A stretch of DNA of 64,000 bases from contig CAWFGE010000012.1 of assembly GCA_963815195.1 (NCBI GenBank), positions 1,067,390 to 1,131,389 on the forward strand, read 5' to 3'. The position numbers and the translations under genes were made by a program. Under the pieces are notes generated by a model. That model did not search any database, was not told the DNA's origin, and was given only the letters and a program-made list of their open reading frames with translations. This DNA comes from an uncultured Planctomycetaceae bacterium (GTDB taxonomy: Bacteria > Planctomycetota > Planctomycetia > Planctomycetales > Planctomycetaceae). Every line of letters begins with the position of its first letter. The first letter of the stretch is position 1. Shown here piece by piece: positions 29,613 to 54,130 of the stretch.

Positions 29613-31334
29613 TCAGCCGCCGGCCCATTGTTGAAGTCGGTTGAACCAGTCGCGGGCGGCGGCGACTTGGCTTTTGACGTCGGGCGATGTGTCTTTCTGC
29701 CGGGCGAATGTCCGCATCGCCAACAGATGCCGGCACGGTCCCATGCGGAGGCCGGCTTTCTGATGATGGCCGCATACGCAGCGGCCTTTTTTGATTCGGC
29801 CGTCCGGGTCCATCCACAATTCCACCGGCTTGCCGCCGGCTTTGCCCGTCAAATGCTCGCTGCCCTCGGGCGTTTTTTCAGACGTGAGCATCTGCACGAG
29901 GCGATTGGCGACGAGCCGGCGGGACTCCGCGAGTTCGGGGTTCTCCGGCCCCAGGTCCGCTTCGCCCAAGGCATTGGGCATGATCCGCCGCCAGCGATAG
30001 AGACCCGCGGTCAGATCATAAATCACTTCGCCCGTATGGGCCAATTTGTTGAGAGCCGCCGCGCACTCGGCGGGTTCAATCCGGTGCTGATCGCGGATCG
30101 TTTCGAATGCCGCCGATCCCCGCCGTTCCAGGTCGCTCGCAATCCGCGAAAGCGCGGCCGCACTGAGTCCCGCGGGCGGAGCCAGAGCATCGAGCGCGGA
30201 ACCTCGCGTCCAATCGTTGGTTGTCCAACCGGACAGGCCCAGCGTCAATCGCATCTCGCCCATCCGGGCCACCCAAAACGTGGGCAGCCCCGTGCCCAAG
30301 AGATACACGTCGAAGCCTTCCGCCAAAGGCAGCACGCGGGCCAAGGTCAACAATCGCCGCCGGCCCCAGATGCGGATCGGCTCATCGTTGGGCCCGTGAT
30401 AAACCGTCCCCCGCGAAACGATTCGCTTTTCCCACGGTTCCAAGACGAGTTCCGGGGCCTGCCCGGACTTTAATTCAAACCGCACGGCCCGCGGGCTGGT
30501 CTTGGCTTTGTTCCGCTTGAGCCACGCGAGCAGCGAATACACGGCCTCGCGCGAAAGCGAAATTTTCCGCAGGGGCATCGCCATCGCCGATTGCAGTTGC
30601 AGAAACCCGCGGAGCCAGCCGCCGGGCAGATCGATTTTTTCCTCGCGGAGGTTTTCCCGGTCCTGGGTGGCGACTTCGAACCCCGCCGGATCGACCGCGA
30701 ACCGCGTTTCCCGGTAAGAGCGGAGCGATTGAAAATGATGGTAGAGGTTCCAGGAATAATCGACGTTGGTCGTCCCGGTTTGCATGGTGGCCGAGGAGCC
30801 GAAGGCGTCCTCGCGGTCCACCGTCAAACAGCCGTAGCTGGATTCATCCGCGGAGAAGCATTCGAAAAACACCACATCGTCGGCGACCGTGATGATCGGA
30901 TCGCAGGGCATGAGCTTCCGCCACAAGTTGGGGTCGCGCGAGAACAAATACCGCGAGTATTGGCTTCTGGTCTTCCAATAAAACTTGCGGGCCGACTGGT
31001 AGCGCTTTTCCAAATCCTCCGGGATCGGCCGGTCCTGGAGCGCCTCGACTTCCGCGCGGGCTTCCTCGATTAAATGCCTGCGAAGCCGCTGCATGCGTTC
31101 CCCTTCGTCGGCTTTCCATTTTTCGTAGGCCGACTTGTCGCGGGGCTTGAACCGGAGGTCGTTGATGACCACGTCGTGCAAAGCCGACATCGCTTCGCGG
31201 AACCGCAGCGGCTCTTGGAGCGCCCCGTCGAACGCCACGGGAGCCCGCGCCAGATTCGGAGCCAGCGACAACACCCGCGCCCCGCCGGCGGTCTTCAGAT
31301 CGCTCTGCCCAAGATAAGAAAATGTCACGTCCAT
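29613..31334 (-). CDS. SWIM zinc-finger protein
   Basis: C-terminal CVC-x(12)-CRH SWIM motif; intact 573-aa ORF. Confidence 0.85.
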   Translation of the reverse strand: MDVTFSYLGQSDLKTAGGARVLSLAPNLARAPVAFDGALQEPLRFREAMSALHDVVINDLRFKPRDKSAYEKWKADEGERMQRLRRHLIEEARAEVEALQDRPIPEDLEKRYQSARKFYWKTRSQYSRYLFSRDPNLWRKLMPCDPIITVADDVVFFECFSADESSYGCLTVDREDAFGSSATMQTGTTNVDYSWNLYHHFQSLRSYRETRFAVDPAGFEVATQDRENLREEKIDLPGGWLRGFLQLQSAMAMPLRKISLSREAVYSLLAWLKRNKAKTSPRAVRFELKSGQAPELVLEPWEKRIVSRGTVYHGPNDEPIRIWGRRRLLTLARVLPLAEGFDVYLLGTGLPTFWVARMGEMRLTLGLSGWTTNDWTRGSALDALAPPAGLSAAALSRIASDLERRGSAAFETIRDQHRIEPAECAAALNKLAHTGEVIYDLTAGLYRWRRIMPNALGEADLGPENPELAESRRLVANRLVQMLTSEKTPEGSEHLTGKAGGKPVELWMDPDGRIKKGRCVCGHHQKAGLRMGPCRHLLAMRTFARQKDTSPDVKSQVAAARDWFNRLQQWAGG

Positions 31335-31375
31335 GAAGTTCGTTTCGGTTTGCAGATTTTCTCAAGGAAGGTCTT

Positions 31376-33062
31376 TTACCAAACCGTTTCGCCGACCGGC
31401 AGCACGTCGACTTCCGGGAGGCGGGCCGCGATGACGGTTGCGAGTTCGGGATGCGATTCAGAGAGTTCCGTCACCGCGGACAACGCTTCCCGCATCTCTG
31501 GGCGCGGATGGAACGGAGGGCGACCGACAACACCGGCAGCAAGCTTTCCGCGCGGCCGGGCTCTTTTTCCAGGGTCCGCGTCATTTGGCGGATCGCTTTG
31601 AGCTTCTGCCGGCCGCCGCGATCGACGCCCGCAAGCACGCTGCACCAGACGGGCGTCAAGGCGTCGGCATCGGGACGGGGAAAACTCCGCGAAGCCCGGC
31701 GTTCCAAAATGTCGATCAGTTGCTGCCGAACGTCGTCGAACGGCGTTTCCAAAAGCCGGCACCAAAACACCGGATCGCCGAACGCCGCCGCGTTGGAGGA
31801 TTCGTTTTCATCAAGCAGCCACGCCCAAGCCGCGGTGCGAATCGGCGCGGCGAGCGAATCGAAAAACGGCAGCACCTGATCGCGGTCATAAACGTCGGTT
31901 CGTCCCAAAATCGCAAGCGCCATGTAGCGACCTCCGCTGCGATCGCGCTCGATTGGGCTTCGCTCAATTCCACCAACGCCGCGCGGTCGCCGGCGGTCTG
32001 GATGCTGCGTTTTTTTAGAAACGTCAGACCCATCCGGGCCACGGGCGTCGGTTCCGAAGTGGTCAGCCGCACGCAATCGGCCAGCGTCAACCGCTCTCCC
32101 GAGACCTTCTCGGCCATTACCCGGCAGATGGTTTCGAGAGCCGTCAGGTTCTCTGTTTCCAGGAGCATCATCCAAGTCGACAGCGGCCAGGTTTCCAAAC
32201 CCTGGGCCTGTTCCAAAAGCTCCGCGGCGAACTGCTGCACGTCCTCTTGCCGATGCGTCAACAGATCCAAAAGCTCGTCGGCCGGGAGTTTTTGAAGCCT
32301 TGATGCGTGATGCTCGCGGAGCATTTCGATCGCCCACGTCCGCATGGCTTTGGAGCGGGCTTCGAGGACCATCAAAAGCAGTACATCCGCGGAGTCCGGC
32401 TGTTTCCAAAGCTCCGGAAAACTCGGCGCGGGTTTGAGTTCGCCCAGCGAATGACCGGGGCGGATTCTGATGAGCGAGGAACCGAACTCGAGCGCGGGGT
32501 GTTCTCGAAAGCAGGCCTGCATCAGGCTCCAGCTATCGAGCAGATTTTCGCCCTGGGCCAGATCGGCATCGCGGTACAGAATCAAAAAGCGGGCGACGGC
32601 CAGGGGGTAGTCTTTGGGCCGCCGATAGCCCATCCAGCGAAAGTACCGCCAGGCCCGCCGGCGGAGGTAATACCGCGTGTGATAGGAAAACAGACGCAGG
32701 TCTCGTGGCGAACTGAGCACGGTCTCTTCGTAACCCGTGCTGGTTTTCCAGTCGTACTTCCAGCGGCGGCGGCGTTCCCGGCGGGCGAGCCGATCGCAGC
32801 CCGTGGCAAACGCCGCCATCAGCTCGTCGTTCTGCTCTGCTTCCGCCCATTTGAAGAGCCGCTTGATGACGGGGTTATGCCCCCACGCATCCCAAGGCAG
32901 ATCGAGATAGCGAAACATCTGCTCGTGCGCCCAAGCCCGGCCGTCGGCGATCCACCGCCCGGTGAACTCGGCCAACAGGGGCATGTCGCGCACCTTCCGC
33001 AGCGCCTCGACAAACCCGGCATCCTGGGCCGAAAATAACGTCTCAAAATGCGCTTTCGCCAT
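31376..33062 (-). CDS. Helical (ARM/HEAT-like) repeat protein, frameshifts near 31920 and 31495
   Basis: Leu/Ala/Trp-rich helical repeats (LLDLLTHRQEDVQQFAAELL, FDSLAAPIRTAAWAWL, LLETPFDDVR); co-oriented with the SWIM gene. Confidence 0.65.
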
Positions 33063-36835: not shown

Positions 36836-37198
36836 TCACTCCGGCGCGAGAATCTGAGAATTGCGCTCGTTCTCCAACCACCGCCGGATCCGGCCGCGGG
36901 TCGAGATCGCCCCGCCGTTGCCGATGGGCAGTACACAGGCGAGCCATTTCGCCAGCCGCCAGGGCACCGGCTGATAAAGCCCGTCCCCAAACCGCACCGC
37001 GACGCCGCGCCGTTCCAAGGGAGGTTGCCCCTGCGCCGCCGAGAGCCAGTTCCGCAGCAATCCACTGAGCCGGTTTCGCTCCCACCAAGGCAATGCCAGC
37101 AATGCCAGCACCAGCCGCAGCTCGTCTTCGTTCGCCGGATGCGCGACCGCATCCGGATGCGGCGGCCGCTCGAATCGTAACCAGAGGATGTTTTGCAT
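36836..37198 (-). CDS. Hypothetical protein, possibly the last gene of the phage-like operon
   Basis: About 120-aa Trp/Arg-rich ORF co-oriented with the portal gene, from which the IS481 separates it. Confidence 0.55.
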   Translation of the reverse strand: MQNILWLRFERPPHPDAVAHPANEDELRLVLALLALPWWERNRLSGLLRNWLSAAQGQPPLERRGVAVRFGDGLYQPVPWRLAKWLACVLPIGNGGAISTRGRIRRWLENERNSQILAPE

Positions 37199-37277
37199 TT
37201 TGTGCTCCCACACTTTATTGAACGCGTCTCACTCCGAAGTGAGGGAGGAGAGAGATTAGAGGATGGAGGTTAGAAAA

Positions 37278-38828
37278 GGTACAGGTTCAGGACATGGGTA
37301 ACAGTTCTGGTTCAGGACATAGGTGACACTTTAAGGGAAAATCTGGTCGAAAGGAGACCAGATTATGCCCTGGAAAGAGGTCGATGTTTTGAATCTGCGG
37401 ACAGAGTTTGTGCTGCGTGTGTTTGAGTCGAAGGTCCCATTTGCCGAGCTGTGCCAGGAGTATGGGATCAGCCGCAAGACGGGTTACAAATGGAAAGAAC
37501 GTTTTTTGGAACAAGGCTTGGAGGGGTTGGGCGATCAATCGCGTCGACCCGCTCAAAGTCCGAATCAGGTCGGCGAGGAAACCCTTTGCCGGATGGTCAA
37601 GTTGAAGCTGGCGCATCCGGCTTGGGGACCACGGAAGATCCGCGCCGTGTTTGGTCGGAATCATCCCGAGGTCGATCTGCCATCGGAAAGCACGTTCAAG
37701 CGGGTGCTCGACAAAGCGGGCTTGGTCAAGCGCCGCCGGCGTCGCGCTTCGGTGGAGTCGGGCCGGATTCAAAACCGTCTCGAAGCCGAGCGGCCCAATC
37801 ACGTCTGGACGGTCGATTTCAAAGGCTGGTGGCGCACCGGGGATCGGATGCGCTTCGAGCCCTTGACGGTGCGCGACGCTTACAGCCGCTTCATTCTTTG
37901 CGCGCAGGCTTTGGAGAACAGCCGCACTCAGACCGTTCAGAGCGCGTTCGAGCGATTGTTCCTCCAGCAGGGCTTGCCGGAAGTCATTCGCAGCGACAAC
38001 GGCTCGCCGTTTGCTTGCACGCGGGCTCCATTGGGTCTGAGCCGTCTGTCGGCCTGGTGGCTGGCATTGGGCGTGGACCTGGATCGGATTCCGCCCGCGC
38101 GGCCGGATCAGAATCGCGCGCACGAGCGAATGCATCGGGACATTGCTTGGGAGTTGGAATGCGACGCCGAGGCCACGCTCCCCTCCCAACAGGCGGCCTT
38201 GGACGTATGGCGCGCCACCTACAACACCGAGCGTCCGCACGAGGCTCTGGGGATGCAGGTTCCCGCCGATTTGTACGTTCCCTCGCCGCGCCGCTTCGAG
38301 GCGGACGAGTTGGTGTTGGAGTACCCGGCGGAGTATTTGCGCCGCCATGTGGGCCCCAGCGGGGCGATCAAGGTTCACAACATCCGCATCCCCGTTTCGG
38401 AAGCCTTGGCCGGCTGGGACGTGGGCTTGAAGTACGAAGCGGCGAAGCGTTACGGCTTGTGGTTTTGCCGGCTGCGGTTGGGCGAAGTGGACCTGGAAAC
38501 CCAGAAGTTTACAGCCGTCAAGTCGTAAGACTGTTGGGGGCTTTGCCCCCAAACCCCCAGGATTTTTCGCCTGGGGTCCAAAGCAGGTTGGGGAAGACAA
38601 GAAGGGAAGCGAACCCTGTGGCGCGCTCCCCTCCTGCTTCGGACCCCACGCCGGCGCTCGGGTTGCTTCCCAGCAGAGCCCTATCCTCCTCGTGGGTAAG
38701 GCAGTCTTCGGCGCTTTAACCGGAAGGTCTTTAAGAGTTCTCATCATCGTGTTGAGTTCCAACCGAAACTGAAGTCCAGCGCCACCCATGTCCTGACCTA
38801 AAAGCGCCACCTATGTCCTGACTGTTCC
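37278..38828 (+). mobile_element. IS481-family insertion sequence
   Basis: Each end has two TCAGGACAT(A/G)GGT repeats, inverted between ends; termini GGTACAG / CTGTTCC; AAAA(G) on both flanks as a possible target duplication; ends uncertain by 1-2 nt. Confidence 0.88.
37365..38528 (+). CDS. IS481 DDE transposase
   Basis: MPWKE start, HTH GISRKTGYKW, WTVDFKG, IRSDNGSPF, HERMHR, YNTERPHEAL. Confidence 0.95.
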   Translation: MPWKEVDVLNLRTEFVLRVFESKVPFAELCQEYGISRKTGYKWKERFLEQGLEGLGDQSRRPAQSPNQVGEETLCRMVKLKLAHPAWGPRKIRAVFGRNHPEVDLPSESTFKRVLDKAGLVKRRRRRASVESGRIQNRLEAERPNHVWTVDFKGWWRTGDRMRFEPLTVRDAYSRFILCAQALENSRTQTVQSAFERLFLQQGLPEVIRSDNGSPFACTRAPLGLSRLSAWWLALGVDLDRIPPARPDQNRAHERMHRDIAWELECDAEATLPSQQAALDVWRATYNTERPHEALGMQVPADLYVPSPRRFEADELVLEYPAEYLRRHVGPSGAIKVHNIRIPVSEALAGWDVGLKYEAAKRYGLWFCRLRLGEVDLETQKFTAVKS

Positions 38829-38865
38829 AAAAGACCCACCAACCTCGAATCTCCATCCTCTACCC

Positions 38866-40250
38866 TCACACCGTTTGCTCGTTCCGTTGCGAATGTTCCG
38901 AAGAGATCTCCGCGCATCACCCGCGGGTCCGCCTTATCCCGGCGGGCGATCTCGGCTTTGCTCAAGATGCCCGCTTCCACCAGCCGCACATCGGCCAGGC
39001 GTTCTTTCGGGCGGTCGCGAACGGCGAGATCGGGAAACGTCCATGCGGGTTTGATCCGCTCGAACGCGTTCGCCGGGAGTTGGCCCGCCGCGATGAATTG
39101 CGACAGCACCCACCGCCAGAGCCGGTTCCATTCGCCTGCGAAAAACAGTTGCTCGCTGTGGAACAATTTGACCGCGGGGCCTTCGGCGACGAGCGTGGAG
39201 GCATAGTTGGCGTTGGAGGCATCGGACGTGAGCATGTATTCGGGCAATCCGCTTCCCGCCGCCGCGCAGAGCAACATCAATCGGCCCAAGGGAACGCCGT
39301 CGCGGAAGTTCGTCGTCGGGTTCAGGTATTGAAGGTCGGTGCCTTCCGAGGTGGTGAGGATCGTGCCGGCCCGATATTTCTCTCGCGGGATGACAGAGCC
39401 GGAATCATAAATCGGCCCGCGTTCGCCCACGTCGGCGACGATGCTCGAATCCGTGCCGCCCGTGACCTTCCGCCAGAGCACGATCGAGGCTTGCAGCTTG
39501 CGGGCGATGAGCGTCGTCTCCAGCCAGCGCCTCAAACTGCCCTAAGGTTTCCAGCACCGGGGCGAACCAGGTCAGGCCCCGCTTCTGGTTCGAGTCGGCG
39601 TTGATCCGCGTATGCAGCACTTCGCCGGCGGGAATCCGCTCCGCCAATTCGCCCGAAGCGGGATCGATCCGCAAATACGCGATGCGGGTTTCCACATCTT
39701 GAGCCGCGGTGAGAATGCCCTGCGTGCCGGGATGCTCGGTGGTCTCGCCGATGGTTTCCGGATCGAGAAACCGCACCGTCGGCCCCTCGTCCGACTCGGC
39801 GAACAGCCTCAAAAAACATTCGCCGTCCCGCCAGGTCCGCCGGGCGAACTCGCGGTAGGAAAAGTGCGCGCGGTTCGCCGAGAGAAACTCGGACCACAGA
39901 TGATCGGCCATCATCGTCAGCTTTTGATCGTGCTCATCCGCGCCGGGCCAATGCGGCACCGCGTGCACCGATAAGCCCGGCCCCGTGACGTAAATCTCCA
40001 ACAGCCGGAGCATGTTTGATGCATGCGGATTGCTCGCGACGAGCCGGCGCGCCTGCGTGCGGGCGTCGATGCGGTCCTGCTCATCGAACCGATTCCCCCC
40101 GCCGCCCAACAGCAGCCACTCGCCGGCGTCATCCGCCACCGGACAAGGCCCGCCGCTCTCGGCCAGTTCCAACAACCGCTCCTGCATCAAGCGCTCGTAG
40201 CGGGCCTTGAGCCGGGCCGTCTGATATTTCTCTCGCAGATAATTGAACAT
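38866..40250 (-). CDS. Phage portal protein (lambda-like), frameshifts near 39530 and probably 38910
   Basis: DGECFLRL, VRFLDPE, EVLHTRIN...KRG, GLPEYMLTSDASNANYAS motifs; follows TerL. 3' end reconstructed. Confidence 0.82.
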
Positions 40251-40279
40251 GGCGTTGTCCTTTGAAATTGAAATGAAAA

Positions 40280-40476
40280 GGCGAGCGGGGGGCGTCAGCC
40301 CCCTGGTTATTCTCAAAAATCAGAAATTCAGTACTTCCAAAAATGCCTGAGCCGCGCACGAAGTAAGCGGTCTTGCGCCGCCTGAGTCCCTGAAAACCGC
40401 TTACTTCGTGCGCGGCTCTTGGTGTTTTGTGCATAACCAGGGGGCTTACGCCCGGGCATCAGCCCCCCCGCTCGCC
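40280..40476. repeat. REPIN-like element (family A arms) with a nested perfect 23-bp inverted repeat
   Basis: Outer GGCGAGCGGGGGGCGTCAGCCCCCTGGTTAT and its inverted copy; inner GAGCCGCGCACGAAGTAAGCGGT at 40349-40371 and 40396-40418. Confidence 0.85.
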
Positions 40477-40479
40477 TGC

Positions 40480-41889
40480 TCACCAGGCAAACCCGCCGTC
40501 CGCGGCGGGCGGGGTGATCGCGAGCCACTCCGCGCTCACGGGCTGCTTGAGCGCATGCCAACACGCGGCCCCCAATGCAAATGCGCGGTCATCGTGAAAA
40601 TCCCCGTCCCGCCGGTGATCGATTCGGCAGCGGCCGGAAGGCGATTGCCGAAAGAGCAGCGATGCCAGTTCCGTTTCCAAATCATCCCGCAGCGGCGTAC
40701 CCGACCGCTTTCCGCAATCGGGATACCAGGCGACTTGCTTTTGCCGAATCAACCGATAGAGCGTCAAAGCCAATTCGTGATTGCCCTTGCCGCCGGCGAA
40801 CTCGAACCGCCGAGTTTTCACCTTCCGCTCCCAGGCTTGAATCACTCCCAAAAGCTGCCATTCATCGAGGATGAACTCGACCCGCTGAAATTTCCCCGAG
40901 ATGCGTTCGATCCAATCGCTGACCCAGGCCACCTGCGTCGGCGAATCGGGCCGCGGCACGACCACATCCATCCGATCCACGACGAGCCGATAGGAATCGT
41001 CGCCCACCGCTTCCTTGTGCAGCACCACGCCCACGGTCAGGTCGCGCTTCTCGGCATAATCGATCGCCGCGTAGTATTGCCGGCCCGGCTGGCCTTGGGT
41101 TTGCTCTTTCAAAGAGTCGTCCCGGCAAGCCTCGGCCTCGGCGAGCGTGACAAACTCCCCGTCCGAATGCTGCCAGCGGTTGAGCCACAACCGCTCGAAC
41201 ACCGGCGCGGGCAAGAGGGCCTGCTGCTCGGCCAAATGTTGTTCCGTGATCCACGGCGCCTGCGGGCCGTCCAAGGTGGAGAACGCCCACATCGGGTTTT
41301 CGGTTTGGGCATTCTTGCGGGCGGACTCGCGGACCTGCCACTGCCAACCCTGGCCGATGCCCGCGTTCGTCAGCACCGCCAAAACACAATGCGGACGTTT
41401 CGCCGCCGTGGACAACAGCGAATACCACAAATCCGGCTTGGGCCAATGGCAGAGCTCATCACAGATCACAAAGTCCACCAGCAAGCCCCACGAGCTTTGC
41501 ACGTCGGAGGAAATCACCGTCAATCGGCTGCCGGTCTCGCGGTTCTCGATGCGATGTTTGAGCAGCGTCAACGGCTGGAAGATCCAGGCATTGAGATGCA
41601 TCAGCCGCTCAAACGCATCGCGGATCAACGCGGCCTGGTCCTGATCCGCCGCCGCCACGATGCCGCTTAAAGGCCGGCCGGCAAACCGCAGAATCCAAGC
41701 AATCTGCATCGCCATGTCCGAGGTCTTCGCGTGCCCGCGCGGGCGTTCGATCCAGGCCCTGCAAACATTCGTCTCCACCGGCAAACCCGCCAGCTTCCGC
41801 CAGGCGGGATCGAGAAGGGCAAAGTCCCGCGACTGCCAGGGCTGGATGATTTCGCCGAACGGCCGATCGTCATCGCCCGTCAAACGCAT
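40480..41889 (-). CDS. terL: Phage terminase large subunit
   Basis: Walker A PRGHAKT, Walker B VICDE, coupling motif TNA, nuclease AIDYAEKRD and HDDRAFA; uninterrupted ORF; the start may lie slightly upstream. Confidence 0.9.
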   Translation of the reverse strand: MRLTGDDDRPFGEIIQPWQSRDFALLDPAWRKLAGLPVETNVCRAWIERPRGHAKTSDMAMQIAWILRFAGRPLSGIVAAADQDQAALIRDAFERLMHLNAWIFQPLTLLKHRIENRETGSRLTVISSDVQSSWGLLVDFVICDELCHWPKPDLWYSLLSTAAKRPHCVLAVLTNAGIGQGWQWQVRESARKNAQTENPMWAFSTLDGPQAPWITEQHLAEQQALLPAPVFERLWLNRWQHSDGEFVTLAEAEACRDDSLKEQTQGQPGRQYYAAIDYAEKRDLTVGVVLHKEAVGDDSYRLVVDRMDVVVPRPDSPTQVAWVSDWIERISGKFQRVEFILDEWQLLGVIQAWERKVKTRRFEFAGGKGNHELALTLYRLIRQKQVAWYPDCGKRSGTPLRDDLETELASLLFRQSPSGRCRIDHRRDGDFHDDRAFALGAACWHALKQPVSAEWLAITPPAADGGFAW

Positions 41890-42364
41890 ACCAGCCCGAA
41901 ATCTGCTCGGCGATGTACGACAGGCTCTCAACGTCCAGGTTTGCTTCAACTTCGTGCGGCAGGTCAACGCCCACCGCGCGGGCCAGTTCAACAAGCTCGG
42001 CATCGGTCAAATCTCCCAAAAGTTCATCGAAGGTCGCCGGTTCGGTCTCGGCAGGTTCCGCGAATGTGGGCGGCGGGAAGAGTTTGAGCCACGCCTGCTG
42101 CGCGGAGACGTTGCCTTCCATCGCCGTGCGGTAGAGGACCGCCATCACGTTGCCGCTCAAGACGCCCGTAATCTCCCGCACCCGCGTGCGGAAGCCGGCT
42201 TCTTCGTTCACGGTGTGAAGGAACGCCTCGACCGAAACGCCCACCTGCGCGCACGCGGCCGCCGGGGATGCCCCGCGATAAAGCAGGTCGAGCACCGCCG
42301 ATTGCTGGGTTTGGGAAAACGGCGAGAATTCCTCTGTGGGTTCGCACGCGGTTTCTTCATCCAC
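41870..42364 (-). CDS. Terminase small subunit-like HTH protein
   Basis: HTH (ASPAAACAQVGVS) and LYRTAMEGNVSAQQAWLK; overlaps the terL start. Alternative basic start MAKKKSS at 42529. Confidence 0.6.
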   Translation of the reverse strand: MDEETACEPTEEFSPFSQTQQSAVLDLLYRGASPAAACAQVGVSVEAFLHTVNEEAGFRTRVREITGVLSGNVMAVLYRTAMEGNVSAQQAWLKLFPPPTFAEPAETEPATFDELLGDLTDAELVELARAVGVDLPHEVEANLDVESLSYIAEQISGWYAFDGR

Positions 42365-42404
42365 GTGACCAGCCGGCTTACACCGGCCGCTCGCCTTTGG
42401 ATTT

Positions 42405-43680
42405 TCACTTTGCTCCTTTGTGGCCTTTGCCCCTTTGCTCCTTCCGATTATCGAAGATGTAGTACACCGGCTCCGCGTAGCGGCTTTTTTCGTCGGTCTC
42501 TTTCGTGAGGAGCTTTTCTTTTTGGCCATGTCTGGGTCCTGATCCATAAAGGGCGGAATGCCCGCGGCGGGAACGCCGGGCGGGCCGGGTCAAGCCGACG
42601 CGACGAAAGCCGGCTTTCTCGAAAACGGGGTTGATGTGGCCCATCTGCGTGAGAGTTTCGATCCAAGGCCAAGGGGCGGCCCGGCAGCTTTCGCGAACGA
42701 ACGCCGCCGCCAACCCCGCCCCGCGATACACCGGATGCAACACCAACCGCGACAATGTGACGAGCTGATCGTTCAAACTTTGAATCGAAACCCGAGACCA
42801 GCGGCCGGGCTTCCCGAAGAACTTGTTCCGCTGCCTGAGCGACACGGCGGGCGAAGTCATCACGCAGATCCCGATCGGCTCGTCGCCATGCCAGAGCAGC
42901 GTGACGAACTTCACGAACCCGAGGTGATGGCTGCGGTAATGCCAGCGAGCAAAATACGGCCAGTCGCGTGCCGATCCGGTCGTGATCTGGATGCCATTTT
43001 CGAAGCTGATCCGCCGTTTTTTTTTGCGCGGGCTCGGCGGGAGAATCTTCATCGGGCCGGACGCAATCGATCCCGCCGTCCAATCGGCAAACAACAGACA
43101 GCGACGGCGAAAGATCGCTCAAAATATCCTCGTGCGTCGTCGCGAGCAAAAACCCGATGCCGGTGCGGTCGGCCAGCCGGCGGAGATTGAAGGCGACCAC
43201 CTTCGCGAGCGTGCGGTCGAGCGTCGCGGAAAATTCATCGGCCACGATCCAATTCGGCTTTTGAGACAAAGCGAGCGCCAATCGAAACCGATACCGCTGC
43301 CCATCGCTGAGTTCGGCGGGCGTCCGCAACAACAGCCGGGCTTCGCCGAGACCGCACGCGGCCAGAATCCCCATCGCCTCCGAAACAGGAATCTCCAAAG
43401 CCTCGATCAAAATCCGCTCGCCGAGTTCCAATTCATTGAGATTCAATACCGCTTGACCTTCCGCCGCCAACCCATCCGCGGCCGCTCGCATCAAGCTCGA
43501 TTTCCCCGACCCCGACGCCCCGGTAAAGCACACCACATCCCCCGGACGAATCGGCAACTCGAAGTCTTCCGCAATCACATAAGCCCCCGTTTCAAACCCG
43601 ATCCCAAAATGATCCATCACCACCGCCGCCCGGCAAGACGGCTGCTTCGCGCGGAAGTCATAGGCAACATTGAGTTTCAT
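42405..43680 (-). CDS. ABC-type ATPase fused to a Mom-like GNAT acetyltransferase (frame break at an A9 run, 43017-43025)
   Basis: GASGSGKS, LSDGQRYR, VADEF, ATTH; after a +1 shift FARWHY and RLVLHPVYRGAGLA (acetyl-CoA motif). Confidence 0.8.
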
Positions 43681-43794
43681 CGTTCATCCTTTGTCAGTAA
43701 TAGTTTTCAGTTTTTTGCCGAGCCGAGCCCCGTGAGGGGCCGGTTATGCCAGTTTCATGTTTCATGTTCTTGGTCATAGGGGCTTGGTCATTCA

Positions 43795-44352
43795 TCATTC
43801 CGAAATGTGCACTCGCAAAGCATGGTCGCGAATCAAATCATCCAGATCGGGCCGGACATCGTCCCATTGCTCCCGGGGCACTTCGAGGGTGACTTTGACC
43901 AAATCGCCATCCGGTTCTTCGTCGGGGACGAAGGCGGGATCGGGAGCCAGCACCAGGTCGCGGAGTTCCTCGGCGTCGAAGCCGGTGAGCGTGGCGTCGA
44001 AATCGGGAAGGGCATCGAGCTCGGCGATCAAGCCCACGAGTTTTTCCGCGTCCCAATCGCCGCCGACCTGGGAGTTGTTCAAGGTGATGTTGAGCGCCTT
44101 TTCGCGTTCGAGGCTCAACGACACCACGACGACTTCGATTTCCGAAACGCCCTGGTCCTTGAGAATCCCGAGCCGTTGATGCCCGGACACGACGTGCCCC
44201 GTTTGCTCGTTCCACACGATGGGCTGCACGAGGTCGAACTCTTTGAGGCTCCGGGCCAGCCGCTCGTAAGCCGGCATCCCCGGCCGCAGGGAAATTCGCG
44301 GGTTATAGGGCGCGGGCTTGAGCTTCGTCAGCGGGATTTTTTGGATGTTCAT
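43795..44352 (-). CDS. ParB N-terminal (ParBc) domain protein, phage type
   Basis: LKPAPYNPR, SLKEFDLVQPIVWN, VSGHQRL, ALNITLN, GDWD, LTGFD. Confidence 0.88.
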   Translation of the reverse strand: MNIQKIPLTKLKPAPYNPRISLRPGMPAYERLARSLKEFDLVQPIVWNEQTGHVVSGHQRLGILKDQGVSEIEVVVVSLSLEREKALNITLNNSQVGGDWDAEKLVGLIAELDALPDFDATLTGFDAEELRDLVLAPDPAFVPDEEPDGDLVKVTLEVPREQWDDVRPDLDDLIRDHALRVHISE

Positions 44353-44388: not shown

Positions 44389-44492
44389 TTTTTGAAAATG
44401 TGAGCAGCACGGCGCTAGCTTCCGGTTTCGATGAAAGAAGTTCGTCAGATCACGACCGGCGGCTAGCGCCGTGCCGCTCACGTTTTCAGAAA
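44389..44492. repeat. Paired inverted REP (family B, GGCTAGCGCCGTGCCGCTCA)
   Basis: Near-perfect arms 44389-44426 and 44455-44492; related copies near 2388, 22790 and 22842. Confidence 0.8.
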
Positions 44493-44508: not shown

Positions 44509-44802
44509 CTATCCGCCATCCTCTATCCTCTCTTCCTCATCGGTTGGTGCATTGAAAAAATACTCGCGGACTTCCGCTTTGATGTTCTCGATGCACCGGC
44601 ACACGTGGCCCGGTTGGTGCCGAAACGCTTTCGCGATCTGCTCCAGCGACCAGCCCGCGTTCTCCCGCAGAGCCAGCATCGCCAGGTACTTCCACCGGCG
44701 GGCATCGGCGTCCGCGAACCCATCCGAAATCGTTTGCCAAAACTCATCCGCCCCCGTGCGGGGCAAGAGCACCTTCACGTTTCTTTGATCGACGACAGAC
44801 AT
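44509..44802 (-). CDS. Small HTH (sigma region 4-like) protein, first gene of the phage-like operon
   Basis: LRENAGWSLEQIAKAFRHQPGHVCRCI HTH pattern. Confidence 0.7.
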   Translation of the reverse strand: MSVVDQRNVKVLLPRTGADEFWQTISDGFADADARRWKYLAMLALRENAGWSLEQIAKAFRHQPGHVCRCIENIKAEVREYFFNAPTDEEERIEDGG

Positions 44803-45023
44803 CAGCAGTTGTTCCCCGTTGGAATTCTTGGGTTTCTACCCTATAGGAGCCACTTTGCGCCACAAGATAAATATACAAAAGAACACTTGTGCTAACTCTC
44901 CAGCATGACGGGAGTTGCGAGCTTTGCAAAGTGGGAAAAGTCGTGTTGGCGCAAAAAAATGCAAGATTCCCGCCGGATGTCGTTTGCGACCAAAATCGCC
45001 TAGAATGACGGAGAGAGCCAAAC

Positions 45024-45171
45024 AGGCGAGCGGGGGGCGTCAGCCCCCTGGTTACGTCGAATGCCGTTCCACGATGGAAAGCTCAATCGAATCTCATGGA
45101 ATCAAATTCTGCAAAAATGCCGGTTTGTTTGAATTGCGAGTAACCAGGGGGCTGACGCCCCCCGCTCGCCT
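45024..45171. repeat. REPIN-like element: perfect 32-bp inverted repeats with an 84-nt spacer
   Basis: AGGCGAGCGGGGGGCGTCAGCCCCCTGGTTAC at 45024-45055 and its exact reverse complement at 45140-45171. Confidence 0.9.
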
Positions 45172-45193: not shown

Positions 45194-46222
45194 ATGGAGC
45201 GTTATCAGAAACAGGTGTTGTTCGCGGGCTTGAAGGAAGAGGGGCAGCGGAAGTTGGTGGAGAGCCGGGTGCTGTTGTGCGGCTGCGGGGCCTTGGGGAC
45301 GGTGCTCGCGGAGACGTTGGTGCGGGCGGGCGTGGGGTTTGTGCGGATTGTCGACCGCGATTTCGTGGAACTCTCCAACCTCCAGCGGCAGGTGCTGTTC
45401 GATGAAGAGGATGTCCGCGAGCGCTGGCCCAAAGCCGTCGCCGCCGCGCGGAAGCTCGCCGCGATCAACAGCGAAGTCACAATCGACGCCGTCGTCGCGG
45501 ACATCGATCACACGAACATCCTCACGCTCGCGAAGGATGTGGATCTGATTCTCGACGGCACGGACAACTTCGAGATTCGCTTCCTCATCAACGATGCCTC
45601 GCTCGAGACGGGCCTGCCGTGGATTTATGCCGGCGTCATCGGCAGCCACGGGCAGACGATGACGATTTTCCCCCACAAGACGGCGTGCCTGCGCTGCTTG
45701 ATCGAAAGCATCCCCGCGCCGGGCACGACGGAGACCTGCGACACGGCGGGCGTGTTGGGGCCGGCGGTCAATGTGGTCGCGTCTTTGGAAGCGACGAGCG
45801 CCCTCAAAATCCTCTCCGGCCAACCGGAACTGGTGGAGCCGAGCTTGATGATCCTCGACGTGTGGGATCTTTCCTTCCGCAAGATGAACGTCGCGAATCT
45901 CCGCGACCGGGCCGACTGCCCGGCGTGCCGGCATGGGGAGCGGGTGTGGCTTTCCGGCCAGAAAGGCGGCGAATCGACGGTGCTCTGCGGCCGAAACGCC
46001 GTCCAAGTCCGCCCGCCGGAGAAGACGCAGCTTTCTCTGGAAGACCTGGCCGAGAAACTCAAAACGTCGGGCGAAGTCCAGTCCAACAAGTTCCTCTTAA
46101 AACTCACGCTGAAAAACCCCGACTACGAGTTGACGGTTTTTCGCGACGGGCGGGCGATCATCAAAGGCACCGAAGACATCGGCATCGCCCGCGGCTTGTA
46201 CTCGCGGTACATCGGAACCTGA
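45194..46222 (+). CDS. ThiF/MoeB-family adenylyltransferase
   Basis: RYQKQ, GCGALG, DRDFVELSNLQRQ, DGTDNF, CLRC and CPAC zinc motifs. Confidence 0.93.
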   Translation: MERYQKQVLFAGLKEEGQRKLVESRVLLCGCGALGTVLAETLVRAGVGFVRIVDRDFVELSNLQRQVLFDEEDVRERWPKAVAAARKLAAINSEVTIDAVVADIDHTNILTLAKDVDLILDGTDNFEIRFLINDASLETGLPWIYAGVIGSHGQTMTIFPHKTACLRCLIESIPAPGTTETCDTAGVLGPAVNVVASLEATSALKILSGQPELVEPSLMILDVWDLSFRKMNVANLRDRADCPACRHGERVWLSGQKGGESTVLCGRNAVQVRPPEKTQLSLEDLAEKLKTSGEVQSNKFLLKLTLKNPDYELTVFRDGRAIIKGTEDIGIARGLYSRYIGT

Positions 46223-46697
46223 CCCGGCGAGCGTGGGGCGTAAGCCCCATGATCTCGAGAATTGACCAGCGGGCGGGGCTGGAGGGGAATTTTTGCGATG
46301 CGGGAAGATTTCGCGATTCTTTTTCCCGGCCCGCTGGTTTGATTAGATGCAGGACTGCATTGGATGGGGCGGAAATAAGCAGTCGGCCCTTGGAAAAATC
46401 GGGTTGGTGAGTTTCAACCGGTCAAAGCGAACTCTCACCAACCCGGGCACCCAACCCCAGCGGTCGCGTTGCGCCGGGAAGGGTTGTTTCATTGTAACCT
46501 GGCCGTTTCGGTCCACAACCTTTGATTCCTCCTCTTTTTTTGGGGTTGGTGATTTTCAGTCGGGTCACAAGTTTGCGAGCATTCGCGAATGGGCCGGCGG
46601 TTTTGCCGGAGGAACACCCGAACCCGGCGAAACCCGTCCCCTTACTCAACTCAGGCACGCGGTTTGATGCGACTATTTTTTGTCAAGGAGCAAACGA

Positions 46698-47712
<1,015 letters not shown>

Positions 47713-47799
47713 TCTCTGTCTCGGATGAAATCAGGAATCCCAAAGCCGCGCAGCGGCGCTGCGCGGCTTTTGAACTCTGTTTATTTTTTTGTTTGAGGA

Positions 47800-47946
47800 A
47801 TGACGATGTTTTTGCGAAAACTCCTTCTGGGCGGCTTGCTAGGCACGCTGTTGTTCGCGATGGGTTGCGGGGGCCATAAAGACCCGCCCAGCCCCGGCCA
47901 GGGAACCGATGCCCCGGATGCGCCCATCTCGACCGAGAAACCCTAA
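47800..47946 (+). CDS. 48-aa lipoprotein following DUF1559 (absent from the ORF track)
   Basis: [30 protein letters not shown]...; lipobox AMGC; GAGG upstream. Confidence 0.7.
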
Positions 47947-48812: not shown

Positions 48813-51516
48813 TTAGGCCGCTTTGGCTTGGACCACGGCGGAGGCGGGGGCGATGGACTTCTTGAGTTCCTCCACTTCCTTTTGGCCCGCTTCCACGGCT
48901 TTGCCGGCGGCGGCGGCTTGTTGCGTTGCCGCGGTGGCTTTTTCCTGGAGCGGTTTGACGGCCGCGGTCAGATCGGCCGCACGCTTCTGGGCGGCGGCGT
49001 AATCGGCGGCGGACTTCGCGGCCGCTTGTTCCGCGGCGGCGACAGCAGCTTGGGCGGTTTCCACGGTTTTGGCTTTTTCGGCGGCGGCCGTCTTGGCCGC
49101 TTCGAGGCCTTGGGCTTTCGCCGCGATCAGGTTCTTCCAAGCGGTCACGGCGGCCGTCACGTCTTTGTCGCCGGGCGATTTCGCGGCGGCTTCCTCGGCG
49201 GATTTGAGGGTCGTTTGAAGAGCCGGCACGAGAGCCGTCAGCGTGGTCACCGTTTTGCCGGCTTCGGTTTGAGCGGCGGCCGCGTCGGCAAATTGCTTCT
49301 TGGCCGCGGTGACGTTGGCGTTGGCGGTTTCGACTTGTTTTTGAACCGCCAGCGCGGTCTGGTTGGCCGAGGCGAGTTCTCCCTCGGCTTTCTTGAGTTC
49401 CGCCGCCGCCTGGTTCGCCGCGGCCGCGAGTTCGTCGGCTTTAGACTTGAGGGCGGTGAGCGCTTTCTGCTTGGCGCTGATGTTTATTTCGGTTTCGAGA
49501 CGGGCCACGTCTTTTTGAGCCGCCGCGAGTTGGGCCGCCATCGCGTCGGCGGCCTGTTTCGCCTGGGCCGCTTTGTCTTGCGCGGGTTTGAGCGTGGGCG
49601 TCAATGCGGCGACCTGTTTCTTGGCGGCTTCCAGTCCGGCCAGAGCGTCGGCGAGTGATTTTTCCATCGCCGCTTGCTCCTTTTGCTTTTGCTGCATGGC
49701 CGCGGTCTTTTCGGTCTGGAGCTTCTTCGCCGCGGCGAGGGCGGCCGCTTTTTCATCAACCTGGGCTTTGAGCTTACCGACGGCTTCCGCGAGGGCTTTG
49801 TCGTCTTTGGCTTTCTCCACCGCTTGCTGGGCTTTGGTGAGCGCTTCTGCGAGCGGCGGGACCACGCCGGCCAACGTATTCGCGGTGTTGGTGGCGGCTT
49901 GGACTTCCTTGGTCAACGCGTCCACCGCGGCTTTGGATTTGGCGATTTCGCCGGGAAGCGCTTTGGACTGGGCCTCCAGGTCGGTCGCCTGTTTTTGGGC
50001 GGCCGCCAGGTCGGTTTGGATTTTTGTCGTCGCCGCAGTCATTGCAGTCTGAGGCATCGGCGAGTTTTTTGTGTTCCGCCTGTTTCGCGGCGAGAGCGGC
50101 TTTCGCTTTAGCGAGTTGATCTTCAAGCTTCAGCGGGTTCGCGGTGAGTTCGCCCACCGCTTTGCCGTCCGCGGCGGCGAAGACTTTGATCGCTCCCGTC
50201 CAATCGCCGGCGATGACCTGGTCGGTCTCGTCGCAGATCGTCACTTGGAGAGCAATATCGCCAAAGGCCGGAAACGCGCGGAGTTGTTTGCCGTTCTGGT
50301 CCCAGAGCTTGGCGGTCTTGTCCCGGCCGCAGGTGACGATCCGGCCGTCGCGGGCGAACTCGACCGAGGCCGCGCCGCCGCCGTGGGCATTCCAGGACTT
50401 GACGTTGCTGCCGTTGACGACTTCCCAGAGCTTGACGCTGCCGTCTTCGCTGGCCGAGGCGACGAGGTTGGAATCGCTCCGCCAGGCAATGTCGCAGATG
50501 GACCCTTTGTGGCCGTTCAAGCTCAGATATTCGCGGCCGGTTGCGGCTTCCCAGACCAACAGGCCGCCGTTGCGGTCGCCGGTGGCAAGCAGCACGCCGT
50601 CGGGGCTAAAGGCGATCGAATAGATCCAGTCGGTGTGCTTTTTGAGTTCGTATTTCAGTTCGCCGGTCTTGGTGGAATACACGCGCACGACTTTGCCCGG
50701 CCCGCCCAAAGCGACCAGCGTTTGATCGGAGCTGATGTCGGCGGCGAGGACGGTGTCGAGCTCGTCGCCGACTTCGATCACGCGTTCGCCCGTGCGGACG
50801 TTCCAGACCACGACTTTGCCCTGGGCCGCATCGTGTCCGCCGCCCGCGAGCAAGAGGCTGCCGTTGTGGCTGAACTTGAGCGACTGCGGCACGCCTTCCG
50901 GGAAGGGCAAAATGCCCGCGAGATCGAGCGTCTTGGTGTTATACAGAATCACCTGCTTCTGCCCGCCCACGGCCACGAGCGGCGACCAGGGGTTGCTGGC
51001 GAGCGCGGTGACCGCCGTGGTGTGTTCGGTGTGCACGACGGGTTCGAGGCTCAACAGTTCCGGCATCGGCGGCGGACCTTCGGGCCGGCCCGTGGGACTC
51101 GCGGCGAGCGACAGATCGAGCTTGGGCTTGTTCGCGATGGGCTTGCTGCCGGAGTTTTCGAGCGCTCCGCCGTCGATCCATTGGCGGATCAACGCCAACT
51201 TGTCCGCGGGGAGCTTGTCTTGTTTGGGCGGCATGTACGGTTCGGATTCATGGTTGACGAGCATGAACAGGTAGCTGTTCCCGGCGTCGCCCGGTTCGAT
51301 CACCGCGCCCGATCCGCCGCCCTGCATCATCGAGGTGTAGTTGAGCAGGTCGAGGTCCGCCACTTTTTTGTTCGTGTTGTGGCAGGTCGCGCAGTATTGG
51401 CGGAAGATCGGCTGCACGTGGTCCTGGTAGGTGATCTTCGCCGGCGCGTCCGCCGCCCGGACGGAAAGCGGAGCCAAAACAATCGTAACGAAGGCAACAA
51501 GTCGGGTCGTGTTCAT
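48813..51516 (-). CDS. Planctomycete cytochrome c + WD40 + Ala/Lys coiled-coil protein (frameshift near 50050)
   Basis: CATCH haem motif, MPP...IRQWIDGGA, WD40 repeats (HTDWIYSIAFSPDG, ASEDGSVKLW), long heptad tail. Confidence 0.88.
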
Positions 51517-51556
51517 AAGAAGTGCTCCAAATCGGGATGCCGATTGAGAGTGAGTG

Positions 51557-51701
51557 AGGCGAGCGGGGGGTGTCAGCCCGGGTGTCAGCCCCCCGGTGAC
51601 GTGGATTGTTTGAGATACAGTCAACTTGAAATCGTCTTCTGGAAATCGAGAGTCTCTTCTTCTTTGCGAATAACCAGTGGGCTTACGCCCGCCGCTCGCC
51701 T
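51557..51701. repeat. REPIN-like element (family A)
   Basis: AGGCGAGCGGGGGGTGTCAGCCC... and TAACCAGTGGGCTTACGCCCGCCGCTCGCCT in inverted orientation. Confidence 0.8.
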
Positions 51702-54130
51702 TAATGGTTGAACAAGAACTCACGGGAGTTCAAGAGGGCCCAGAACACGTCTTCCAACACGGGTTTGGGGTCTTTCTCCTGGGCGAGGACCGCGACGAGC
51801 GAGGTCCGTTCTTTTTCGTCGGGTTTGCGGGTCAGGCAGCGGATGTAAAGCTCTTCGAGGATTGCCTCGGGCTTCTTGCCTTCGGAAAGCTGGCGTTCGA
51901 TCAGCTTGCCCTGCTGGATTTTGCTGTTGGCCGTGTCGCCGTTGAGCATGTGCAAAGCCTGCGACAAGTTCGGCTCGACTTTGACTTCGCAGGAGCAGAC
52001 CGTCTCGCGGCTCGCGCGGCCGAAGGTCGTCAGGAAGTAGGTCGAGGTGTTGCCGTTGGCGATCTGCACCGCGCGGGCCCCCAACGGCAGGCCTTGGAAT
52101 TTGTTCTTCGTATCGGTGACCTGCGTGATCGAATCGAGCATCATTTCCGCCCGCACCCGGCGGAGATTCGCGTGCGAAAAGTTGCGGTCGTCCGAGGCGT
52201 TCGTTTCGTTGGTGGCGGTCGAAAGCTGATACGTCCGCGACAGGCAAATGTCCCGCACGAGCTTTTTGAAGTCGTAGTTGTAATCGGTGAACCGCTTGCC
52301 GAGTTCGTCCAGAAGCTCCGGGTTGACGGCGGGATTGGAGACCCGCACGTCGTCCACTTCGTGAATAATGCCCCGGCCGAGGAAGTGGGCCCAGACGATG
52401 TTCGCGAGGTTGGTGGCGAAGTAGGGGTTCTCGGGCGACGCGAGCCATTTGGCCATCACTTCGCGGCGGTCTTTGCCTTTGACATCGGGGACGGCACCGC
52501 CCAGGAACTTGGGTTCCATCACGCGGTTGTCCACGGGATGCTTGACATCGCCGCTGCCCCGGTTGTAGATGATGAGTTCCCGCGGGTCTTCGCCGCGCTT
52601 GCGGCCGATTTGCGAGAAGAACGCGGCGAAGCTGTAATAGTCATCCATCGTCCAGCGGTCGAAGGGATGGTTGTGGCATTGGGCGCATTGAATCCGCATG
52701 CCCATAAACACCTGGGCCACGTTCTCGGAAGTCTTCAGCGTGTCCTGCTCGGCCTGGTAATAATTGGTCGCGGCGTTCGCGAACGTGCCGCCGTTGGCCG
52801 CGAGCAGTTCCTGCACCATCTGGTCCATGGGCACGTTGTCCTGGATCCGCTCCTGCAGCCAGTTGTAATAGCGGAGCATCGACTTGTAGCTCACGCGGTT
52901 GTTGACCGTGCGGATCTGCAACAGCTCGGCCCACTTCATCACCCACAGTTCGACGAACTCCTTGCGGCCCAACAGTTCATCGATCAATTGCTCCCGCTTG
53001 TTCGGGGCGGCGTTTTGCATGAAGCGGTTGTATTCTTCGACCGTGGGCAGAACGCCGATGACATCGAGATAGGCCCGCCGCAGGAATTCCTCATCGGTGC
53101 AAAGCGGCGAAGGGACGATCCGCAGCTTTTTGAGTTTGTTGTTGATGAGCGTATCGACGTAGTTGTTCTCGGGCACGTTGGGCCATTCGAACTTGAGGCC
53201 CTTGGGCAAAACGATGAAGTGCGAGCCGACGGTGTGGGTTTCGAAGCGGGCCATCAGAAAGGCTTCGCCGCGTTCGCCGGCGGTGACGATGCCCTCTTGC
53301 GAGACTTCGGCCGAGTTGTCGTTGTTGGTCATAAAGTAGGCGAGCGAGGTGACATCGCGGTCGGTGCCGTCGGAATACTTCGCCCGCACGGTGAGCTTTT
53401 GCGTCGCGCCGGCTCCGTCCATCACCGCGTTTTTGGGATAGAGTTCGACGGAGACGACTTTGGGCGGAGCGGTCTGATCGTTGGGGGCACCCGCTTCGAG
53501 CCAGCGGATCATGGTGTTATAAAGTTCGCTGCCTTTGTCGAAGCGTTTGCCGCCGGTGTGGGGCACGATCCCTGCGGATTTTTCCACGAGCAGGCTTTCG
53601 TGAGGCAATGCGAGGTTGATCCGCCGGCCGCTGATTTCGCGAGTCAGCCGGTAATGATCGCCTTGGGGATCGAACCCGAACAGCGACAGCCGGAAGCCGT
53701 CTTTCCCGCGGGCCGCCCCGTGGCAACTGCCCATGTTGCAACCGGACTTCATGAAGATGGGCATCACGTCGAGTTGAAAACTGATCGTCCGGTCGGCCTG
53801 GGCCTGGACGACTTCCACGGGGACTTTCACGGTCTGTCCGCCATAGGCCACGGTGAGTTCCGTCTTGCCGTCCGCCTGCGGGAAAAGCGTATGCCCGTCC
53901 ATCTTGACGAGGGCCGGGTTGGCGAGCGTCAACTGCGATTTCGCGGTGACATCTTCGGTGAGGCCGTTGGCATACTCGGCCTGCACGATGAGCGATTGCC
54001 GATCCTGGTTGGTGCTGAGATGCACATCCGCCGGATAGACATTGAGCTTCGCCAGCGGCGACTCCGCCGCTCCTAACGAACTCGCGATCCCCAAGACCAA
54101 AGCCAGGCTAATCCACTGTGTAAAACGCAT
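51701..54130 (-). CDS. DUF1549/DUF1553 protein with Ig-like domains
   Basis: Signal peptide, GCNMGSCHG, DEEFLRRAYLD, CAQCHNHPFDRW, WALLNSREFLFNH. Confidence 0.93.
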   Translation of the reverse strand: MRFTQWISLALVLGIASSLGAAESPLAKLNVYPADVHLSTNQDRQSLIVQAEYANGLTEDVTAKSQLTLANPALVKMDGHTLFPQADGKTELTVAYGGQTVKVPVEVVQAQADRTISFQLDVMPIFMKSGCNMGSCHGAARGKDGFRLSLFGFDPQGDHYRLTREISGRRINLALPHESLLVEKSAGIVPHTGGKRFDKGSELYNTMIRWLEAGAPNDQTAPPKVVSVELYPKNAVMDGAGATQKLTVRAKYSDGTDRDVTSLAYFMTNNDNSAEVSQEGIVTAGERGEAFLMARFETHTVGSHFIVLPKGLKFEWPNVPENNYVDTLINNKLKKLRIVPSPLCTDEEFLRRAYLDVIGVLPTVEEYNRFMQNAAPNKREQLIDELLGRKEFVELWVMKWAELLQIRTVNNRVSYKSMLRYYNWLQERIQDNVPMDQMVQELLAANGGTFANAATNYYQAEQDTLKTSENVAQVFMGMRIQCAQCHNHPFDRWTMDDYYSFAAFFSQIGRKRGEDPRELIIYNRGSGDVKHPVDNRVMEPKFLGGAVPDVKGKDRREVMAKWLASPENPYFATNLANIVWAHFLGRGIIHEVDDVRVSNPAVNPELLDELGKRFTDYNYDFKKLVRDICLSRTYQLSTATNETNASDDRNFSHANLRRVRAEMMLDSITQVTDTKNKFQGLPLGARAVQIANGNTSTYFLTTFGRASRETVCSCEVKVEPNLSQALHMLNGDTANSKIQQGKLIERQLSEGKKPEAILEELYIRCLTRKPDEKERTSLVAVLAQEKDPKPVLEDVFWALLNSREFLFNH

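Follow-up and report, generated by a model that had tools for sequence, protein, structure and literature searches.

The pairing of a soluble ABC ATPase with a GNAT is known, and so is its predicted role. According to the available part of PMC7824862, which cites Iyer et al. 2013, the prediction is that such a pair, in a phage DNA-modification context, acylates a base of DNA, the example given being QAX98348.1 of Tenacibaculum phage pT24. The same block is present in SSU5-/Nickie-like phages, in the order ParB-ParB-ABC-GNAT-TerS-TerL-portal in phages nickie, BUCTxx99 and RHEph10, where TerL and portal are annotated directly after the ParB/ABC/GNAT block, and as ParB-ParB-ABC-GNAT in SSU5. As for the modifying enzyme, phage Mu Mom (PF25680; structure 8bv8) has a GNAT fold, is basic and belongs to a late/packaging context, with active-site roles given to H48, Y49, R101, D139 and Y149 and with R101 presented as Mom-specific in the portion of 10.1101/861617 that was accessible. 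Concerning gene expression, Thermus thermophilus dnaX (nine A/T), two-ORF dnaX (10 A's) and lambda gpG/gpGT each give, from one gene, a short product, which is an ATPase or a chaperone, and a C-terminally extended one in a ratio set by slippage, nine A/T being the efficient length for polymerase slippage, and different dnaX lineages use either A9 slippage or an A_AAA_AAG ribosomal shift, PTR and PRF being interchangeable (available parts of PMC5009743 and PMC3711429). Finally, ParB proteins are reported in the available text of PMC13229309 to activate a phage thymine dioxygenase and to co-occur with terminases, which by analogy offers a precedent for a ParB-N protein acting as a helper.

A 64,000-nt stretch from an uncultured Planctomycetaceae bacterium (GCA_963815195.1, contig CAWFGE010000012.1; hereafter the window) was found to carry a comparable set of genes. 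As in the system of Iyer et al., as far as it is described in the source above, a GNAT and a soluble ABC ATPase stand in a phage-type DNA-modification context, and in both cases the function is a prediction; the window's ATPase has 46 matches, of which two are records from Tenacibaculum phages. The locus differs from that description in that its ABC and GNAT parts are linked through a conserved out-of-frame run of nine A's (A9) and in that it is a fixed, single-copy chromosomal locus present in roughly half the genera of the family. Compared with the SSU5-/Nickie-like phages, the ABC proteins share 36-43% identity and the phage GNATs match the family profile with E values of 1e-27 to 1e-31, whereas these phages have separate ABC and GNAT genes, two ParB genes and full phage genomes. 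The initial annotation had proposed a Mom-like, packaging-linked DNA modification: homology (91% in the profile comparison below) and the phage gene order speak for it, but the prediction is already in print (PMC7824862, in the part seen). Judged against that source, what appears new here is the putative slippage site and the apparent domestication of the operon. The literature search found no paper on either, although Iyer 2013, Krishnan 2020, Iyer 2009 and supplement file 1 of PMC3711429 could mention the system.

The operon lies on the minus strand and starts with an HTH-like small protein (44509..44802), a candidate regulator with weak matches to HTH_23 (E 0.012) and phrog_1368 (E 0.0099). 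The ParB-N gene (43795..44352) matches phrog_620 (E 7e-39) and Pfam ParB_N (26.2 bits, cut-off 26.3), but also phrog_498, the N-terminal part of a DNA methyltransferase (E 9e-39), and PADLOC MTase_II (positions 8-153, E 1e-36); by these matches, it is of the type present in phage DNA-modification loci and also fused to phage methyltransferases. The soluble ABC ATPase domain (43026..43680, zero frame; PF00005, E 8e-11) has intact catalytic motifs: Walker A, the LSDGQ signature, the Walker B ADEF and TTH are invariant or nearly so in an alignment of 40 orthologues, and the structure model of the orthologue from the same-genus genome G348 has a pLDDT >90 over residues 1-210. It is followed by the Mom-like GNAT acyltransferase domain (42405..43016, shifted frame), basic (pI 10.6) and with the motifs FARWHY and HPVYRGAGLA, then by a TerS-like gene (41870..42547; phrog_4044, E 7e-4) whose start lies inside the GNAT 3' end (dual coding), and by TerL (40480..42003, start codon uncertain; phrog_9, E 1e-25, and PF03354). 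The ParB-N, ABC, GNAT and terminase genes, their order, the membrane-free ATPase and both GNAT motifs had been recognised in the initial annotation and were confirmed. Downstream are the portal gene (38798..40316, minus strand), which in the assembly occupies two frames (39405-40316 and 38798-39535) with PF05136 on both pieces, and a small conserved gene (36836..37213, minus strand) with no family match. Upstream, a divergent thiF/moeB-type host gene (45194..46222, plus strand; PF00899, E 4e-74) stands outside the operon.

Among the best 80 of 184 related loci, which are labelled mostly Planctomycetaceae, the gene order is conserved: the HTH-like gene was found upstream in 55, ParB-N in 57 and the TerS-like gene in 77, while the portal adjoins the TerL block in 15 and the small gene is present in eight. 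Where at least 5 kb of upstream flank was available, thiF was found in the fetched flank of 25 of 56 loci, and as a neighbour it identifies a conserved site on the chromosome. The operon genes, TerL included, are single copy in the 8.87-Mb genome, except for two weak matches to ParB. With respect to G348, dN/dS is 0.11 for the ATPase, 0.12 for the GNAT and 0.09 for TerL, and the values as a whole span 0.09-0.24. In the window, an IS481-type element (37365..38528, plus strand; transposase with IS481 domains) sits between the portal and the small conserved gene, which are close to each other in G348.

The ATPase and the GNAT had been described as joined. They are in fact in different frames: the ABC frame continues into unrelated sequence as far as 42448, and the switch to the GNAT frame falls at an A9 run on the minus strand (43017..43025; T9 on the plus strand). 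In a first phylum-wide sample, the GNAT was at -1 with an A-run at the same place in all 12 same-family loci. The junction was also scored in the best 80 of 184 loci, picked by GNAT similarity with the junction state ignored, several of them from genomes already among those 12. Scoring was possible in 75, the five others lacking either an ATPase in the locus (three) or the anchor motif (two); one of these five, L061, appears to be broken, with a stop codon at the run. Of the 75 scored loci from this best-80 set, 63 have the GNAT at -1 relative to the ABC frame (54 with A9, three with A8, one with A6 and five with no run), six are in frame (four with A10, one with A9 and one with no run) and six are at +1 with A8 or A9. 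A run of 8-10 A's thus stands at the frame transition in 68 of the 75, and four of the six in-frame loci have A10, that is A9 plus one A. In 32 of the 63 -1 loci, the GNAT frame has no ATG, GTG or TTG from the preceding stop to the DW motif, and this stop is often a TAA made by the first A's of the run.

Runs of nine A's are otherwise scarce: the window's genome has 2.7 per Mb, and the remainder of these loci 1.6 per Mb. Neighbouring genes use AAG 838 times vs. 655 for AAA, and AAA-AAA makes up only 13 of 79 Lys-Lys pairs, so that lysine usage does not demand A9 runs. In a FastTree phylogeny, from which three short loci were left out, the A9/-1 state extends over the whole tree, including the deepest lineage, while the A10 alleles are scattered tips. 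Over the 54 A9/-1 loci, the length is constant but the codon phase is not (44 in phase 0, 10 in phase 2), and the base after the run is G in 40, C in 12 and T in two. Two lineages carry shorter runs within A_AAA_AAG, with only A6G in L009 and L109 and only A7G in L013. Outside the family, 12 of 17 distant loci of the phylum are in-frame fusions, which indicates that an ATPase-GNAT fusion is a natural product; in four the genes are separate, and one lacks an ATPase in its locus. Within the family, at least nine loci are without a run (five in-frame fusions and four with an own GNAT ATG), and slippage is therefore dispensable.

Several junctions have their own peculiarities. In L050, L051 and L152, REP-like repeats are inserted at the ABC/GNAT junction, the A-run is lost and an own GNAT ATG is gained. 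The L100 junction has no long A-run and a -1 offset, with a T7 run a few bases downstream that may have taken over as slippage site or may be an error. Distant members (among L027, L028, L029, L020 and L023) have a separate GNAT with its own ATG and a Shine-Dalgarno-like sequence. Fused, split and slippage-joined ABC/GNAT forms therefore exist in one phylum.

In the assembly, the window's own junction is A9/+1, a state shared by two close relatives. A single short-read contig carries one more T behind 43016, corresponding to a tenth A, at a depth of 5.6 and with only 14 nt past the run, which is less than the 31-nt bridging rule. At this junction, G348 is A9/-1 and has a single substitution in the first position of the run, as would be expected if the window were A10/-1. 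The +1 state is thus probably due to an A dropped from the assembly, the organism having A10. Several other genes in this assembly also occupy more than one frame, which suggests indel errors: besides the portal, whose two halves share one frame in G348 and whose break is not spanned by short-read contigs, these are an ORF chain at 31.4-33.0 kb (29613-33062), a gene with a prepilin-type N-terminus (46680-47879), a WD40-like gene (48813-51723) and, in the same genome, the capsid gene (G000:C12:651797-652989). Assembly error alone was ruled out for the frame switch by the -1 offset and A-run of the same-family loci.

Recoding at the A-run is very likely, and from the sequence comparisons it is likely that programmed slippage yields the ATPase alone and an ATPase-GNAT fusion from one gene. 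The slippage is probably transcriptional, by the RNA polymerase, because the length of the run is constant while its phase and the next base vary, and because no stimulator is seen: Shine-Dalgarno-like sequences near the run were found in eight of 65 loci (controls, 2-9) and nearby 3' hairpins had a mean z of -0.4, neither being above controls. The same two products could be made by a -1 ribosomal frameshift on A_AAA_AAA or A_AAA_AAG, possibly with the 30-nt element about 50 nt downstream, described below, as part of a stimulator, and we regard this as a minority option that deserves consideration. It would account for the -1 offset of 63 of the 75 loci, for the in-frame X_XXY_YYZ heptamer present in every run, and for L009, L109 and L013, which are canonical A_AAA_AAG sites where the run is too short for the polymerase to slip efficiently; dnaX, moreover, uses either mechanism in different species (available part of PMC3711429). 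A 5-bp hairpin, CGGUG/UACCG, can also form in 92-100% of 65 loci, but it lies about 65 nt off and is without two-sided covariation. The variable base after the run means that A_AAA_AAG is not the conserved unit, and neither this variability, nor a length held at nine across varying phases, nor the lack of a Shine-Dalgarno or near 3' structure signal is what a ribosomal site would lead one to expect. The protein product is identical whether polymerase or ribosome shifts.

Two other readings do without recoding. The run could be a phase-variation tract, in which replication slips toggle subpopulations between OFF (A9) and ON (A10), as the four scattered genomes with A10 in frame might suggest; this is improbable, as 54 of the 75 loci are at exactly A9 (OFF), no run of A11 or longer was seen, the GNAT is under purifying selection, and the downstream zero-frame or cis constraint would be left unexplained. 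Even less probable, and largely refuted, is the reading of ABC and GNAT as two overlapping, translationally coupled genes, or as decaying prophage debris with an assembly error. Phages and four distant loci do carry the two as separate genes, and in four family loci the GNAT has an ATG of its own. The window offers an in-frame ATG at 43052, and other frames (portal, capsid) are broken as well. However, the GNAT has no start in 32 of 63 -1 loci, the loci with an own ATG are those that lost the run, and single copy number, conserved order, the thiF neighbour and a dN/dS of about 0.1 do not fit debris. Polymerase slippage at the A9 run remains the preferred explanation. Compared with dnaX and gpGT, the proteins are unrelated, and the extension is here a predicted catalytic acyltransferase.

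As for the nature of the GNAT, its structure model has a pLDDT of 92. With hhalign, the GNAT family matched a 10-sequence Mom alignment with a probability of 91% (E 1e-6) over 126 columns, covering the whole GNAT core, while a single E. coli TmcA sequence matched the GNAT profile with 43% over 64 columns in the CoA-binding part; this comparison is uneven, Mom having been entered as an alignment and TmcA as a single sequence, and a single Mu Mom sequence gave no match to the GNAT profile. In the profile alignment, Mom H48, Y49 and R101 align with the invariant H20, Y21 and R84 of the family. Of the iron-binding triad of Mom (Y49, D139 and Y149), the last two are not conserved: D139 is opposite a gap, an invariant Glu lying three residues earlier, and Y149 aligns with Phe. 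The position of Mom S114 is mostly Ala. In structure searches, Mom (8bv8) came first with both programs, but in Foldseek it was tied with TmcA (E 3.9e-6 vs. 4.7e-6), and in VIA RimI (Z 12.9, vs. 13.4 for Mom) and NatA were within one Z unit; the VIA alignment extends over 159 residues for Mom vs. about 132 for RimI. The best viral fold matches include Mom-like phage proteins.

None of 80 GNAT members matched the Pfam Mom family (PF25680) at E 0.05, where Mu Mom itself scores 253 bits, and identity to Mu Mom is 12-14%. The TmcA/NAT10 class, defined by PF13718, the helicase-like PF05127 and a tRNA-binding domain, was rejected: neither PF13718 nor PF05127 was matched by the 80 members or by the ATPase, which is of ABC type, while the E. 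coli TmcA control matched both. A search of the window's genome for PF13718 found none either. The check proposed in the initial annotation, Mom vs. TmcA/NAT10, leaned towards Mom in the uneven profile comparison and gave no PF13718 match, but not in Foldseek, where the two are tied, nor in Pfam, where the Mom family is not matched. A PDB sequence search with the GNAT returned generic GNATs only, PADLOC and NCBIfam gave no specific GNAT family, and a scan of viral contigs with a single GNAT sequence gave five pattern matches, none confirmed. The window's GNAT also differs from Mu Mom in needing or carrying an ABC ATPase.

By inference, the GNAT would act as a Mom-type nucleic-acid acyltransferase, although by sequence it is not a member of the Mom family, and DNA is the substrate favoured, by a modest margin, on these comparisons. 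The recoding and the operon could also be real with a GNAT that acetylates a protein (TerS, a head protein or a host enzyme) or tRNA instead of DNA, which is a substantial though lesser possibility. The TmcA tie, the nearness of RimI and NatA and the missing iron ligands D139 and Y149 agree with such a substrate, and phage GNATs acetylating host RNA polymerase exist (PMC7824862, in the part available). On the other hand, the Mom match spans the N-terminal strand, the HY motif and the beta-4 Arg, the counterpart of R101, which the accessible part of 10.1101/861617 treats as Mom-specific. The longer VIA alignment to Mom, the absence of PF13718 from every member, the neighbouring ParB-N of the methyltransferase-fused type and the Mom-like proteins among the viral fold matches likewise favour DNA over protein or tRNA.

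Two stretches of the GNAT region are constrained at synonymous sites. About 50 nt downstream of the run, a 30-nt stretch with the DWPYFARWHY codons (42936..42965, minus strand) has a synonymous diversity of 0.19-0.24 of expectation, vs. a median of 0.94, with codons such as GCT (70/75), CGG (72/79), CAT (77/82), CCG (62/65) and GAC (77/81). Read in the ATPase frame, it encodes a conserved short motif, and it is relaxed in three of five run-less fused loci but kept in loci with an own GNAT ATG. It may encode, in a second frame, the tail of the short ATPase product, or else act as a signal in RNA or DNA; the pattern fits dual coding, and a small hairpin is also possible. The zero-frame tail was rejected as a folded part of the ATPase (model pLDDT of about 50, no structure), as was the stretch as a repeated operator or pac site, since its PWM has a single match in the window's genome.

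The second constrained stretch, at the GNAT 3' end, is explained by TerS starting within the GNAT gene: an ATG in the +1 frame was found at most 120 nt upstream of the YYIFDN codons in 47 of 55 loci. Ribosomes shifted at the A-run would consequently cross the TerS start, and coupling is possible. In most relatives, the TerS start falls about 100-140 nt within the GNAT frame (42405-42547, minus strand, in the window).

Structural genes had been said to be absent, with the retention of the module taken as a hint that its chemistry matters to the host. The premise is wrong: the window contains the portal gene, and G000:C12:651797-654516, about 450 kb from the locus in the same genome, carries genes for a prohead protease and a major capsid protein along with a small head gene. 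The GNAT is retained alongside the terminase and capsid genes. In the relative L080, the head genes follow the portal, and their orthologues in the window's genome share 59-73% identity with them; for the three genes after the capsid in L080, those queries found no match in the window's genome, and a PDB sequence search with the capsid protein returned none. Co-retention was examined in 60 family genomes, one per genus, kin among them not being independent. All 34 genomes with a GNAT have a TerL orthologue and 33 have a close capsid orthologue (three partial). In the 26 without a GNAT match, no close capsid match exceeded 24 residues, three had distant ones at 30-34%, and a strong TerL was found in one.

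Together with the gene order, the thiF neighbour and the dN/dS values, this co-retention follows the pattern of a domesticated particle and not that of a module for host DNA alone. As in RcGTA-type GTAs, packaging and head genes are host-fixed, single copy and under purifying selection, with terminase, portal and capsid kept at separate loci and no integrase seen beside the operon or the head genes (partly after PMC7947584). They differ from RcGTA in phylum and gene set and in having their own candidate DNA-modification module. On this genomic evidence, the operon seems rather likely to serve a GTA-like particle. The literature search found no GTA described in the planctomycete phylum.

The whole explanation, to which we give even chances, is a phage-derived packaging operon in which A9 slippage provides a minor ATPase-GNAT fusion that acylates DNA for a GTA-like head. 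The RNA polymerase would add one A at A9 (giving A10) to yield the fusion, while unslipped mRNA would give the ATPase alone with a short tail. An ATPase dimer, with the short form in excess and few long forms, would clamp or load on DNA together with ParB-N, and this complex would bring the basic GNAT to the base, with acyl-CoA as donor. Mom is toxic, and a low fusion level would limit such a modifier. A plain N-acyl base would be a more likely product than the methylcarbamoyl-adenine of Mom, because D139 and Y149 of the Mom iron site are not kept. The terminase would then pack marked DNA into the host-encoded GTA-like head, and the mark would protect it from restriction in the recipient. The fullest version, put forward tentatively and with the balance against it, is an undescribed Planctomycetaceae GTA-like particle in which an ATP-driven ParB/ABC/GNAT assembly stamps a new acyl base during packaging, the family-wide A9 setting the motor:modifier ratio and the GNAT/TerS overlap perhaps tying the modifier to terminase synthesis.

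Conserved recoding is rare in non-mobile bacterial genes, prfB, dnaX and a few others being the cases given in the literature consulted, and the probable A9 recoding spans dozens of genera. The frame switch explains why annotation pipelines would call the gene a pseudogene family-wide. Through natural in-frame alleles and cultured carriers, among them the A9/-1 strains Planctomicrobium sp. SH661, SH664 and SH668 (loci L067, L081 and L066), a DNA base that may be new could be approached directly and, if the operon is a GTA, it would be one with chemical cargo protection.

As regards the rest of the window, a SWIM-finger-like protein and repeat-rich neighbours form a cluster at 29613-33062 (minus strand). 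REP-like short palindromic repeats were found between genes at 38650-38690, 38780-38824, 40300-40434, 44456-44487 and 44990-45170, and many metagenome contigs match the window only by these repeats.
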